64,000 nucleotides of DNA from a virus (IMGVR_UViG_3300035208_007487); one strand, 5' to 3'. Numbered from the stretch's first letter, positions 26,461-31,333 are shown. Notes: a model not told the origin generated them from the sequence alone. Numbers and translations: made by a program.

Positions 26461-26976
26461 TTAGGCAGCGGCGGGAGTCGAAGTATCAGCCTTCGGAGCG
26501 GCACCGTTCTTTGATCCCTTGGGGGCACGGTGGGTAACTTCGCCCTTGAACTGCTCCTGCAAGCGCTTGATCATCTTGGAAATGGAGTTCAGGCGAATGG
26601 AATCCAGCTTGGCAGTGAACTTGCGAGGAGCCTTGATGCCCTCAGCCGCGCCGCGAACCTGGGCATTGATCGTGCATTCGTGGCCGAAAAGAGCCTCATT
26701 GAGAGCCACTTCGACCATTTCATCTTCGACCTTCACCAGAACCTTGGAATCCGGCAAAGTCTTGATGGAATCCAAGATGCTCTGACGAAGCTTCTGATCC
26801 TCGTCCTTACGAGCGCTCTTCTGAACACCCATCGCCTGCTTCACTTCGTCCTGCTTCTGCTTCAGAATGGACTGAATCTTCTTGAGGTCCGTGGTGGGGA
26901 TCGCATTGACATCCAGGGTGACAACCGGAGTATCGGTCTTGGGAGCAGCGGCTGGAGTGTTGATCGTGTTTTCCAT
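26461..26976 (-). CDS. GC-rich early protein, paralog 1 (basic Pro/Ala/Lys-rich tail)
   Basis: Likely start MENTINT; core shared with 28619..29269; two tandem promoters upstream. Confidence 0.8.
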   Translation of the reverse strand: MENTINTPAAAPKTDTPVVTLDVNAIPTTDLKKIQSILKQKQDEVKQAMGVQKSARKDEDQKLRQSILDSIKTLPDSKVLVKVEDEMVEVALNEALFGHECTINAQVRGAAEGIKAPRKFTAKLDSIRLNSISKMIKRLQEQFKGEVTHRAPKGSKNGAAPKADTSTPAAA

Positions 26977-27398: not shown

Positions 27399-27471
27399 TG
27401 TGCCCGGTGGGGCTTGGACCCACGACCCGCGACTTAAAAGGCCGCTGCTCTACCAACTGAGCTACAAGCAC
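27399..27471 (-). tRNA. trnK: tRNA-Lys(UUU)
   Basis: GTGCTTGTAGCTCAGTTGGTAGAGCA GCGGC CTTTTAA GTCGC...GTGGGTCCAAGCCCCAC CGGGCACA cloverleaf; CCA not encoded. Confidence 0.92.
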
Positions 27472-28618: not shown

Positions 28619-29269
28619 TTAGGCTACGACTGCCTTGGGTGCCTTCTTGCCCTTGTGCTTGGGCACCTTGACGGTATCAACCACGGGAGCGGGAACAGGT
28701 GCAGGAATCTCGGCCTTGGGTGCTTCGGGAGCGTGGCCCTCTTCCATCGTGGATTCGGTCGGCTTCACATGGCGAGTGACTTCGCCCTTGAACTGAGCAT
28801 TCAGCCGGGCAATGGCCTTCTGAATTCCGGTCATGCGAATGGAGTCCAGCTTGGCCGTGAACTTGCGAGGGGCCTTTGTTCCCTCGGGCTGGCCCTTCAC
28901 CTGAGCCATGATCGTGCATTCGTGGCCGAAAAGAGCCTCTTCCAAGCTCACTTCCACGTACTCCCCTTCGACCTTCACCACCACAGGATGGCTCTTGAGG
29001 GCGCGAAGATCATCCAAGATCGTCTGACGAAGCTTCTGATCGTCACCCTTCCTGGCCTTCTTCTGGTCGTCGAGAACCTTCGAGGTGCTGGCCAGAGCCG
29101 CCTTCAGAAGCGAATCAGCCTTCTTCAGGACATCCTTGGGAAGAGCAGCCATTTCCTCGGAACTGAGAGCCGAAAACTTGGCGGCAGTGATGTTCTCGAC
29201 CGTGAGAACTTCATTGATGACGGTTTCGGTGAAAGCAGAGACAGGAGCGGAAGTAAGCGTGGTTTCCAT
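28619..29269 (-). CDS. GC-rich early protein, paralog 2
   Basis: Likely start METTLT; DQKLRQ.ILD...EALFGHECTI.AQV.G..EG.KAPRKFTAKLDSIR...QFKGEVT shared with 26461; C-terminal KVPKHKGKKAPK. Confidence 0.8.
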   Translation of the reverse strand: METTLTSAPVSAFTETVINEVLTVENITAAKFSALSSEEMAALPKDVLKKADSLLKAALASTSKVLDDQKKARKGDDQKLRQTILDDLRALKSHPVVVKVEGEYVEVSLEEALFGHECTIMAQVKGQPEGTKAPRKFTAKLDSIRMTGIQKAIARLNAQFKGEVTRHVKPTESTMEEGHAPEAPKAEIPAPVPAPVVDTVKVPKHKGKKAPKAVVA

Positions 29270-29457
29270 TGTAGTGTCTTTCTTTTGAGGTTGAGAGGCT
29301 TGGAGAACCATTCTCGTCGTCTCTTACACATAGAATATAAAAATCTAGTGACTTTTGGCAACTAAATCTGAAAGAAAGTTAAAGATAATTTGCAGAACTA
29401 GCTAGGAGGGATTTTCTTGCCTAGTTGCGAGTATATATAATAGCAGAATAGAAGTCA

Positions 29458-29535
29458 AAAATAATTCCAAAATTTAACCTTGCAAATCAGTTCAGTCTAT
29501 ACTAAATTTCAAGTATATACAAAAGGAATAATAGA
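29458..29535 (+). repeat. conserved ~80-bp intergenic element, copy 7
   Basis: Matches copy 1. Confidence 0.9.
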
Positions 29536-29658
29536 TATACTAATCCATTATTACATAAAAAGAAAGAGTATATATTACTGCATACTCAATCAATCACTCA
29601 ATTAAATGTTGTCGGAAATATATATAATAAGGAATTTATTATTTGCATAAATAGCAAT

Positions 29659-30438
29659 ATGTATAATAAATCAGTAATTAATTTAGCTAAAAAAATGAAA
29701 TTAAATGGAAGCTCAATTAGCGAAATAAGTAGAAAAATTTGTGCTAGTAGATCAGCCATTAAAGAATGGGTTACTCAATCAAAAAGATACACACCTAAAA
29801 ACATATTTTATAATATAACTACTTTTGAATCATTTACTAATAATATGGCAAAGTTTGAAGAATATAGAAAATCATATTATTACTTATTGGGCCAATATTT
29901 GGGAGATGGATGCATTAGCTTAATGAAAAATAAACGAACATACGAACTACGGATAATGTGTGCTGATTCACATCCTATGATAATTGAAGAAGTTAAGAAA
30001 TCCTTAAATATAGTATTTCCATATAATAAAATACAAGATGTGAAACGTCCAGGCTGTCGTTCAATTGGAATATATTGCAGTGCGTTACCTCAAATATTTC
30101 CTCACACTGGAAAGGGCAAAAAACATAATAGAATCATTAAATTAATAGATTGGCAACTTAATTATTTAGAATCAAATAAAATTTATTTACTAAAAGGACT
30201 ATTTCATTCAGATGGATCATATTATTATTCAAAAGCGACTAATAATTATCACTATAATTTTACCAATTGCTCATTAGATATTCATAATATTTTTCAAAAT
30301 TGTTTAGAGTCATTAAACATTAGATATACCTTTAATAAAAGAAAATGTAAAAAAATATTACCTAATGATATATATTTAACAATAATTTATCGCAAATCTG
30401 AAGTAGATAAATTATTTGAATTAATTGGGCCTAAATAA
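29659..30438 (+). CDS. free-standing HTH + double-motif LAGLIDADG homing endonuclease-like protein
   Basis: N-terminal HTH (SISEISRKICASRSAIKEWV); YYLLGQYLGDGCI and LLKGLFHSDGS motifs; TAAATA-N5-ATG. Confidence 0.85.
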   Translation: MYNKSVINLAKKMKLNGSSISEISRKICASRSAIKEWVTQSKRYTPKNIFYNITTFESFTNNMAKFEEYRKSYYYLLGQYLGDGCISLMKNKRTYELRIMCADSHPMIIEEVKKSLNIVFPYNKIQDVKRPGCRSIGIYCSALPQIFPHTGKGKKHNRIIKLIDWQLNYLESNKIYLLKGLFHSDGSYYYSKATNNYHYNFTNCSLDIHNIFQNCLESLNIRYTFNKRKCKKILPNDIYLTIIYRKSEVDKLFELIGPK

Positions 30439-30470
30439 AAAAACCTCCTAGAAATTAATCTAGGAGGATT
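30439..30470. terminator. bidirectional intrinsic terminator
   Basis: CCTCCTAGA-AATTAA-TCTAGGAGG hairpin between the convergent endonuclease and tRNA-Leu. Confidence 0.75.
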
Positions 30471-30475
30471 TATAG

Positions 30476-30840
30476 TGCCCAAGGCGGGACTTGAACCCGC
30501 ACGGCCTTACGGCCAAAGCATTTTACTTACCACTATTACTTTCGTAACCAATCAATTAGATTGTTTGTGGTCTGGACTATCCCTTCATCATATTCAATTT
30601 CTTGAAGTTAGATGGGCGATTATAGTCTCTACACCTTCCTATTACTAGGCTTGGCACGGTATTGGGTCAATATTGCTATTAGGCCGTTCACCGTTAGCAG
30701 CTTATCTAGATAAACTACCCTCAAGGGACTCTTATGTCACTACTTGAGATTACGCCTTACTACATATTCGTTTCCAAATATGCGACCCAACCCTATTACT
30801 AGGGTTTAGTGCTCAGTGTCTACCATTCCACCACCAGGGC
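30476..30840 (-). tRNA. trnL: tRNA-Leu(UAA) interrupted by a group I intron
   Basis: 5' exon GCCCTGG...GAGCACT (30840-30808) plus 3' exon TAAAATGCTT...GGTTCAAGTCC...TTGGGCA (30525-30476). Spliced loop is CT-TAA-AA; long variable arm. Confidence 0.9.
30526..30807 (-). ncRNA. group I self-splicing intron (282 nt, no ORF)
   Basis: P1 with U.G at the 5' splice site; R element TGTAGAGACTATAA and S element GGGATAGTCC (P7); terminal G. Confidence 0.88.
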
Positions 30841-30853
30841 ATGAGCTAAAAAA

Positions 30854-31219
30854 TGAAGCTAAAAAGAATTGCCTATTACCTTGTTTATATCTGCTTGATG
30901 CAGTATATTAGGTTCTGTTCATTGACTCGGATTAAGGTGAACCCGATGATTGTAAATGGCCTGAAAAACTAACAATGATCCGTTCAGTTTCATCTTCAGT
31001 TTGACGTGAGGGCTTTATTTACTATCATTTTATTACACTTGCGTTTTTGTAATTAGGCTACTGGACTAACTACAATCTATTTCAGTTTATGTGGATGACT
31101 GAAAAAAGATATTTTACCACAAGCCTATCATTCTTTTGATTTGATTTACCTCAAGGACTATGATTCACGAAGAGCGTAGCCATTAAGTGCTTCAAATGGT
31201 TATTGCTAACCTAGCTTCA
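30854..31219 (-). ncRNA. candidate ~365-nt structured ncRNA in the tRNA operon
   Basis: Ends pair (TGAAGCTA/TAGCTTCA); multiple internal hairpins; no ORF. Confidence 0.55.
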
Positions 31220-31245
31220 ACTATTCCAAAGATTTCAAAGAACAA

Positions 31246-31333
31246 TGGGGGATGATGGATTCGAACCACCGATATCAAGCAGTTCACTTGGTAGCTCACT
31301 GCTAGGTGCCTTAAGCCTCTGGGCTAATCCCCC
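31246..31333 (-). tRNA. tRNA-like RNA with enlarged anticodon arm
   Basis: Perfect acceptor GGGGGAT/ATCCCCC-A, D arm, T arm GGTGG-TTCGAAT-CCATC; anticodon arm AGCAGT/ACTGCT with 14-nt loop. Confidence 0.65.

Follow-up and report, generated by a model that had tools for sequence, protein, structure and literature searches.

Does an intron without an open reading frame (ORF) that lies next to a homing endonuclease gene cooperate with it, or do the two merely share a habitat? The question is raised by a tRNA-Leu(UAA) gene in a 64,000-nucleotide (nt) stretch of viral DNA (IMGVR_UViG_3300035208_007487; hereafter, the window), in which the gene is interrupted by a small group I intron and faces a gene for a helix-turn-helix (HTH)-LAGLIDADG protein. 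A preliminary description of the locus had proposed possible collaborative homing, in which the enzyme cuts the intron-less tRNA-Leu genes of rival phages or the host and the intron at position 33/34 makes its carrier immune. Having followed both elements through related phages and through the wider families to which they belong, we regard that proposal as improbable and think it likely that the tRNA-Leu(UAA) locus of this jumbo phage houses two selfish elements that are independent of each other. On our best reading, their adjacency is a coincidence of shared habitat and does not mark a co-evolved pair.

The window corresponds to G000:C18:128001-192000 on a 212,780-bp contig, which is a member of a 194-contig bin. 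The size of the bin gave grounds to suspect that the label "phage" was mistaken, but this was ruled out by the phage hallmark genes on the contig, which encodes a DNA polymerase, a large terminase, a ribonucleotide reductase and a baseplate wedge protein, in addition to Dda-like helicases, a sigma-like protein and a dCMP deaminase. The replicon is a jumbo phage that was binned together with a bacterial genome, and its phage origin, as first described, stands. An identical locus is present on a 268,450-bp contig from an independent ENA assembly.

The split tRNA-Leu gene was not called by ARAGORN in a default run. When introns were allowed (-i), the program reported, on the minus strand, a tRNA-Leu(taa) at 30475-30840 whose 282-nt intron starts at tRNA position 34. 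The parts of the gene, all on the minus strand, are as follows:

30808-30840, minus: 5′ exon of tRNA-Leu(UAA), nt 1-33, ending in CACU (U33); from ARAGORN -i and exon joining
30526-30807, minus: ORF-less IC3 group I intron of 282 nt; from the family covariance model and alignments
30789-30806, minus: P1 extension hairpin; from alignment and fold
30782-30787, minus: guide sequence GGU(C)GC
30763-30782, minus: P2
30753-30756 with 30615-30618, minus: P3
30694-30748, minus: 55-nt two-hairpin insertion between P3 and P4 (J3/4); from alignments and fold
30621-30637, minus: J6/7 and the 5′ strand of P7
30586-30614, minus: P8
30574-30580, minus: 3′ strand of P7
30530-30570, minus: P9
30526, minus: omega-G; from alignment and the end of the covariance-model match
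30475-30525, minus: 3′ exon, starting UAAAAUG, with U34 in this exon; from ARAGORN and reading of the sequence

The 5′ exon terminates in GAGCACU and is collinear with the intron-less alleles of related phages (L134-L136 and L127, described below), whilst the 3′ exon begins with UAAAAUGCUU; joined, the two exons give a normal tRNA-Leu(taa) in ARAGORN. CU|UAAAA is the only division of the 7-nt loop that yields both U33 and the anticodon UAA while placing a U ahead of the 5′ splice site and ending the intron in G, and we therefore place the intron at 30526-30807, between U33 and U34.

At its gathering threshold, Rfam found no intron in the window; RF00028 gave the intron 20.8 bits, against a gathering score of 50. 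The preprint by Williams (2020, bioRxiv 10.1101/2020.01.27.920355) points out that the Rfam seed includes no bacterial sequences. Since RF00028 reached such a low score, we built a family-specific covariance model from an alignment of 61 ORF-less family introns, from which the window intron was excluded. The consensus of this family comprises P2-P6, P8, and P9, with compensatory changes at 31 of 42 pairs. The model matched the window at 30526-30740 (117.6 bits, E 2.8e-28), ending exactly at the omega-G, and matched nothing else in the 64 kb. At its 3′ end the intron lines up, nucleotide for nucleotide, with over 60 homologues terminating in GTRGTAAG, and the G at 30526 matches the terminal G of the 61 relatives. 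The conserved core from P3 to P9, including the G-binding P7, is present, and its strings AAGGUGUAGAGACUA, AUAGUCCAGACCACAAAC and GUGGUAAG read as those of IC3 tRNA introns. At the level of sequence, we thus confirm the element to be a genuine group I intron of subgroup IC3, ORF-less and located after U33. In this respect the preliminary description was right, as it was about the U.G pair in P1, the P7 elements and the omega-G.

The position of the presumptive 5′ splice site is reflected in P1. RNAfold pairs the exon sequence GCACU with GGU(C)GC as U.G, C-G, A-U, a bulged C, C-G and G-C; this pairing supports U33 as the -1 nucleotide, whose U forms the wobble with the guide sequence. The guide region as a whole reads GGGUCGC, and GGGUCG is also found in other introns at 33/34 of tRNA-Leu. 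Across the family, guide and insertion site covary: the pairing is ACUU with GAGU in introns at 34/35 of tRNA-Leu, GACU with GGUC in those at 33/34 of tRNA-Leu and of tRNA-Met, and GCCU with GGGC in those at 33/34 of tRNA-Arg(UCU).

The window intron nevertheless has peculiarities, and the best-surviving alternative, though still an unlikely one, is that it is a decaying relic, in which the J3/4 insertion and a weakened P1 would have stopped splicing and left the tRNA-Leu copy as a tolerated pseudogene. The 55-nt insertion (two hairpins, -17.6 kcal/mol) interrupts a P3-P4 junction that is short and uninterrupted in about 100 aligned relatives; none of these has it, their extra sequence being in P5, P6, P8 or P9. 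The canonical 4-bp P1 (GACU/GGUC) is cut to 3 bp plus a bulged extension, and the intron lies on a long branch in both of the trees described below. On the other side of the balance, the core looks maintained, judging from its pairings, since P3 (GGCG/CGCC in the window and GGUG/CACC in relatives) and the first P4 pair (A-U instead of U-A) keep pairing through compensatory changes; J6/7, P7, J8/7, P9, and the omega-G are intact as well. Furthermore, the insertion consists of two self-contained hairpins set between A-rich junction residues, the exons still give a normal tRNA, and the locus is identical in the independent 268-kb assembly. The loop of P1 holds a perfect 7-bp hairpin with a GUAA cap, and P1-loop hairpins occur in other 33/34 tRNA-Leu introns too. 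We also considered whether the 55-nt insertion or the P1 hairpin might be a dispersed repeat, but rejected the idea, as no other copies of either were found in the assembly.

How unusual, then, is an intron at this site? A pattern derived from the shared P7-P9 region gave at least 120 matches in IMG/VR; for each match, every U upstream was fused in turn with the 3′ exon and the product passed to ARAGORN to see whether a tRNA was called. Among the matches listed, 65 introns are at 34/35 of tRNA-Leu(UAA), three besides that of the window are at 33/34 of the same tRNA, and nine are at 33/34 of tRNA-Met(CAU). The listed matches also include introns at both 33/34 and 34/35 of tRNA-Arg(UCU), and others in tRNA-Lys(UUU), tRNA-Asn(GUU), tRNA-Thr(UGU), tRNA-Ile(UAU) and tRNA-Arg(CCU). 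In total the family occupies the anticodon loops of at least nine tRNA species on more than 120 IMG/VR contigs. A scan for the omega-G followed by UAAAAU, coupled to a join test, added 21 IMG/VR contigs and 39 bacterial species with an intron at 33/34 of tRNA-Leu(UAA), nearly all of them with the exon GGACU and most with the guide GGGUC; the bacterial carriers include Armatimonadota, Lewinellaceae, Gammaproteobacteria, and Kuenenia, among others. Altogether, the 33/34 intron of tRNA-Leu(UAA) was confirmed in at least 24 other viral contigs. Williams (2020) names as classical types Leu.3Ug, fMet.2Ug, Arg.5Ug and Ile2.5Ug, to which 17 new ones are added; because fMet.2Ug is among the classical types, 33/34 is the classical position in tRNA-fMet. 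The site in tRNA-Leu(UAA) is therefore neither rare nor unique to the window, and the special status first accorded to it has to be given up.

By blastn against phage records, 3′ intron halves together with tRNA-Leu 3′ exons were found in the huge phages LR756501 and LR756511 and in Agrobacterium phage Atu_ph07, in all three at the canonical U34|A35. The Atu_ph07 copy (L004, MF403008.1, ~112.9-113.3 kb) is a 278-nt group I intron at 34/35 of an unannotated tRNA-Leu(UAA), over which a coding sequence for a "hypothetical protein" has been annotated, and the homologous intron of LR756511 (L003, LR756511.1) contains an ORF for an HNH endonuclease.

The family has switched tRNA species often (18 changes among 69 introns in the tree). 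Two of the 33/34 tRNA-Leu introns cluster with phage tRNA-Met(CAU) 33/34 introns (support 92/97). In each of two maximum-likelihood trees, of 69 and 101 introns, the window intron sits on a long branch (0.58-0.72) and in no supported clade. We dropped the idea that it descended from a tRNA-Met 33/34 intron, as neither tree could place it. A recent jump between tRNA-Lys and tRNA-Leu was likewise rejected, the tRNA-Lys intron of related phages being no close relative of that of the window. This same-family intron is located at 34/35 of tRNA-Lys(UUU) in three relatives (L135:6119-6337, L136:6380-6598, and L138:2440-2658); tRNA-Lys is intron-less at the corresponding position in the window (27399-27471) and in L134, and an ORF for a DUF559 nuclease-like protein adjoins the split tRNA-Lys in L136 and L137.

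The second element at the locus is a free-standing endonuclease gene, whose surroundings are as follows:

29600-30468, plus: endonuclease cassette, 869 nt; delimited by blastn break points against L134-L136 and L138
29659-30438, plus: free-standing HTH-LAGLIDADG endonuclease gene (P0001, 259 amino acids); from Pfam, fold and catalytic Asp
30444-30467, no strand assigned: terminator hairpin with its T-run on the minus strand, which ends the tRNA transcript; from a terminator scan

P0001 matches the Pfam family LAGLIDADG_3 (PF14528) with 43.7 bits (cut-off 22.5; E 3e-11) and has a match to a Tc3-type HTH at its N-terminus. It contains two motifs, LLGQYLGDG (D83) and LKGLFHSDG (D185), and both Asp residues are invariant in 18 homologues. 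The AlphaFold model (predicted local distance difference test, 91.2) has a pseudo-dimeric alpha-beta fold, and its closest solved structure is I-DmoI (template-modelling score 0.73 by target, E 3e-8, Foldseek probability 1.0). From its motifs and its modelled fold, P0001 is predicted to be a monomeric, double-motif LAGLIDADG homing endonuclease, in agreement with the initial assignment. The gene is convergent to tRNA-Leu, as first described, but ends 36 nt from the 3′ end of the tRNA and not 37 nt; 88 bp separate its stop (30438) from the omega-G (30526), so that an ORF-less intron does lie beside a free-standing endonuclease gene. The GC content is 25% in the endonuclease gene, 40% in the intron and about 58% in the exons. 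A tblastn search of 50,697 phage records found no homologues of the endonuclease. A promoter-like site (TTAACC-18-TATACT, 29474-29503, plus strand) lies in a repeated inter-cassette element ~100 nt upstream of the cassette and could drive the endonuclease gene.

Related phages provide a natural series of alleles at this locus:

Window type: window and L126; identical; endonuclease present; intron present
L127 type: L127-L129, from three samples; ~81% nt identity; endonuclease present (P0002, 74% identical); intron absent
L134 type: L134, L135, and L136; 88-97% nt identity; endonuclease absent; intron absent
L138 type: L138; ~85% nt identity; endonuclease absent; intron absent

Close relatives thus differ in whether they have the endonuclease at this one fixed site, as would be expected of a mobile element. 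In L134-L136, the 869 nt of the window at 29600-30468 correspond to 53 nt, and in L138 an unrelated spacer, some 250 nt in length, stands in place of the cassette. Where the endonuclease is present, in both lineages, its cassette begins 6 nt past the 3′ end of the tRNA and carries its own terminator hairpin. The hairpin at 30444-30467, being common to the endonuclease-plus alleles of the window and L127 whilst the endonuclease-minus alleles have a different one, is part of the cassette.

In L127-L129 the endonuclease gene is intact and likewise convergent, with 36 nt between it and a tRNA-Leu(UAA) that has no intron. Aligned with the window by blastn, the sequence breaks exactly over 30526-30816. 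The tRNA of L127 equals that of the endonuclease-minus L138 except for one base in the D loop and one in the acceptor stem, and in both phages the insertion site, CACUUAAAAUG, is the same as the spliced junction of the window (CACT|TAAAATG). The cassette is the sole difference common to both plus/minus allele pairs, and no substitution in the tRNA is common to both. Compared with the L134 type, the window exons have changes at pair 30-40, position 43, and one base of the variable arm; no clear co-conversion tract could be discerned in them, the substitutions forming a mosaic when set against both types of allele. The intron was probably gained in the phage lineage of the window, since it is missing from seven related alleles.

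To judge whether the two elements belong together, we looked at the neighbourhoods of both families. tRNA-Leu genes (UAA, CAA, UAG or GAG) lie within 60 nt in all six endonuclease homologues with available DNA; nine of ten endonuclease loci in IMG/VR are in tRNA-Leu clusters, the most distant one lying by tRNA-Lys genes. Among 80 endonuclease loci in Joint Genome Institute (JGI) metagenomes, 67 have a tRNA-Leu within 300 nt, and in 60 of these a tRNA with a CAA anticodon is located 35-130 nt upstream of the endonuclease on the same strand. The LAGLIDADG clade almost always sits beside tRNA-Leu genes. Yet in these three sets together, about 100 other loci, no tRNA adjacent to the endonuclease gene contains an intron matching the family model. 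The single match among them is an intron at 34/35 of another tRNA-Leu 1.6 kb away (L288). Conversely, at 212 intron-bearing loci the endonuclease family was represented by nothing more than one weak fragment of 44 amino acids. Intron and endonuclease are found side by side only in the window type, and the co-occurrence in relatives that the preliminary description had looked to is not seen.

Several observations on these loci may be added. In L288 (2501-5122), the LAGLIDADG gene and the intron are in one tRNA array, the former abutting a tRNA-Leu(CAA) and the latter in a tRNA-Leu(UAA). Most of the CAA tRNAs of the metagenome loci (L257-L334) measure only 74-77 nt and so are without the long variable arm that a tRNA-Leu should have. 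In several of the JGI loci inspected, the spacer ahead of the endonuclease gene contains a short conserved motif, ATGTCAGTG. We found no description in the searchable literature of a LAGLIDADG clade tied to tRNA-Leu or, after 2014, of introns in phage tRNAs.

These data bear directly on strict collaborative homing, in which the site of the endonuclease would span the intron-less anticodon loop, and the intron would split the site, protect its carrier and be copied along with the endonuclease gene. Such homing has precedent in phages (reviewed in PMC3984707), and the locus has much that would be expected of it: an ORF-less intron and a free-standing endonuclease gene only 88 bp apart, both polymorphic among relatives, a sole intron-plus allele that is also endonuclease-plus, and an endonuclease family tied to tRNA-Leu genes. 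In its boldest form, this reading would make the HTH-LAGLIDADG clade a homing system specific for tRNA-Leu in phages and bacteria; the enzyme of the window would cut intron-less tRNA-Leu(UAA) genes of competing phages, or the host's, at or close to the anticodon stem-loop, and the 33/34 intron would be the resistance allele. If that were true, the pair would be the first case of collaborative homing in a viral tRNA gene, and the allele states neither, endonuclease only, and both would be snapshots of the assembly of the pair. Nonetheless, L127-L129 keep an intact endonuclease beside a tRNA-Leu with the identical CACT|TAAAATG, and their tRNA departs from that of the endonuclease-minus L138 in the D loop and acceptor stem only. 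The roughly 100 other family members adjoin tRNA-Leu genes that lack the family intron and have the anticodons UAA, UAG, CAA, GAG, and CAG; because these anticodons vary, a shared target centred on the anticodon is unlikely. The 212 loci of the intron family show no link to the endonuclease either. We therefore consider strict collaborative homing to be very doubtful here, and the first proposal of a homing pair in which the intron confers immunity finds no support.

About as unlikely is a role for the endonuclease mainly in the service of the phage, by analogy with SegB of T4 and T6, a free-standing, tRNA-associated enzyme that cleaves within tRNA genes and, by amplifying them, evades defence (PMC13096335). 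P0001 would cut in or near tRNA genes for recombination, preferential inheritance or amplification of tRNA-Leu arrays, and could act, for example, against tRNA-targeting host defences. In favour of such a role, runs of three to six tRNA-Leu genes with differing anticodons surround many family members, but the window has one tRNA-Leu only, with no tandem amplification visible, and a distribution this patchy among close relatives is in keeping with a selfish element.

We return, then, to two independent selfish elements at one locus. The intron belongs to a large family that moves among the anticodon loops of phage and bacterial tRNAs; its guide GGU(C)GC would pair with the exon GCACU and set the 5′ splice site after U33, and with the omega-G preceding U34, splicing would restore the normal CUUAAAA anticodon loop. 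The endonuclease would recognize the end of the tRNA-Leu gene together with downstream DNA at its own insertion point. Cassette insertion itself would destroy this target and so provide self-immunity, and the endonuclease would spread by double-strand-break repair in co-infections. The end of the tRNA-Leu gene, where the cassette sits, is most likely the target, to judge from the allele comparison, and it is the most economical choice because it explains both the isotype association and the self-immunity. On our best reading, the intron would not be the immunity device of the endonuclease. Lying 88-370 bp from the cassette, it may be co-converted as a passive hitchhiker, which is plausible by analogy with mobE-driven trans homing (PMC2790892).

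Some points weigh against this picture. The J3/4 insertion, which is unprecedented in about 100 aligned relatives, might impair splicing. The difference at exon pair 30-40, which adjoins the splice site, is a compensatory swap relative to the nearest intron-less alleles. The intron-plus state has been seen only alongside the endonuclease, albeit in a single lineage. P0001 and P0002, being only 74% identical, could have different specificities, and the L127 tRNA could be shielded by a few substitutions located 5-10 nt away from the insertion site.

Upstream of tRNA-Leu are two further features:

31246-31333: tRNA-His-like gene; Rfam tRNA, 38.4 bits
31348-31376, minus: promoter-like site TTGCCA-17-TATATT, a consensus match only, upstream of the tRNA-His-like gene, a spacer and tRNA-Leu

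The tRNA-His-like gene is 88-90 nt in length, with an oversized anticodon or variable part. The ~400-nt, ORF-less spacer between it and tRNA-Leu (30841-31244) has no Rfam match, and L134-L136 contain about 550 extra nt at window position ~31216-31220. Beside the endonuclease cassette lies an ORF of 230 amino acids (28619-29311), with 56% GC in a phage of 29% GC, in which frames are open on both strands and to which a stretch ~2 kb away (26591-26824) is paralogous. Its homologues in related phages are 82-92% identical; no relatives were found in IMG/VR, and those known came from a large protein collection. Elsewhere on the contig, the large-terminase ORF (G000:C18:117520-120495, L157; 991 amino acids) matches terminase families over its first ~200 residues only, and the rest may be an intein or other insertion.

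The two elements can be compared with several known systems. A 2014 review placed all known phage group I introns in protein-coding genes, despite the many tRNA genes of phages (PMC3984707); the IC3 family in phage tRNA genes runs counter to that statement, and the window intron is one member of it, at the minor 33/34 site of tRNA-Leu. With the canonical tRNA-Leu(UAA) intron at U34|A35 it shares the tRNA, the anticodon loop, the IC3 core AAGGUGUAGAGACU, P7, and a P9 ending in G. It differs in lying one nt upstream, at U33|U34, in its guide (GGUC as opposed to GAGU), in its residence in a phage and in its extra hairpins in the P1 loop and J3/4. Its position after U33 and the GACU/GGUC logic of P1 are those of the cyanobacterial tRNA-fMet intron (fMet.2Ug), although it is in another tRNA and the tree could not place it. 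The tRNA-fMet intron of Synechocystis holds its own PD-(D/E)XK endonuclease.

Collaborative or trans homing in phages is known for F-CphI with the psbA intron of cyanophage S-PM2 and for T4 mobE with the I-TevIII intron (PMC3984707; PMC2790892). As in those systems, a free-standing endonuclease lies by a gene whose intron is ORF-less or endonuclease-defective, and co-conversion could move both; unlike them, a relative here has the endonuclease without the intron, and the two families do not co-occur. The natural allele series in closely related phages offers a ready-made setting for experiments on whether an endonuclease and the ORF-less intron beside it act together or only live side by side. 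As for the protein, P0001 resembles I-DmoI in its monomeric fold and in having two motifs, each with a catalytic acidic residue, but the two are only 16-18% identical, and I-DmoI is encoded in an archaeal rRNA intron and has no N-terminal HTH. In habitat, its closest counterpart is SegB of T4 and T6, a homing endonuclease whose free-standing gene likewise lies in a region of phage tRNA genes; the enzyme cuts tRNA genes and drives the preferential inheritance of the region (PMC13096335). SegB, however, is a GIY-YIG enzyme with no isotype preference, whereas the HTH-LAGLIDADG clade of the window parallels it from another enzyme family and favours one tRNA isotype, being found almost only at tRNA-Leu.

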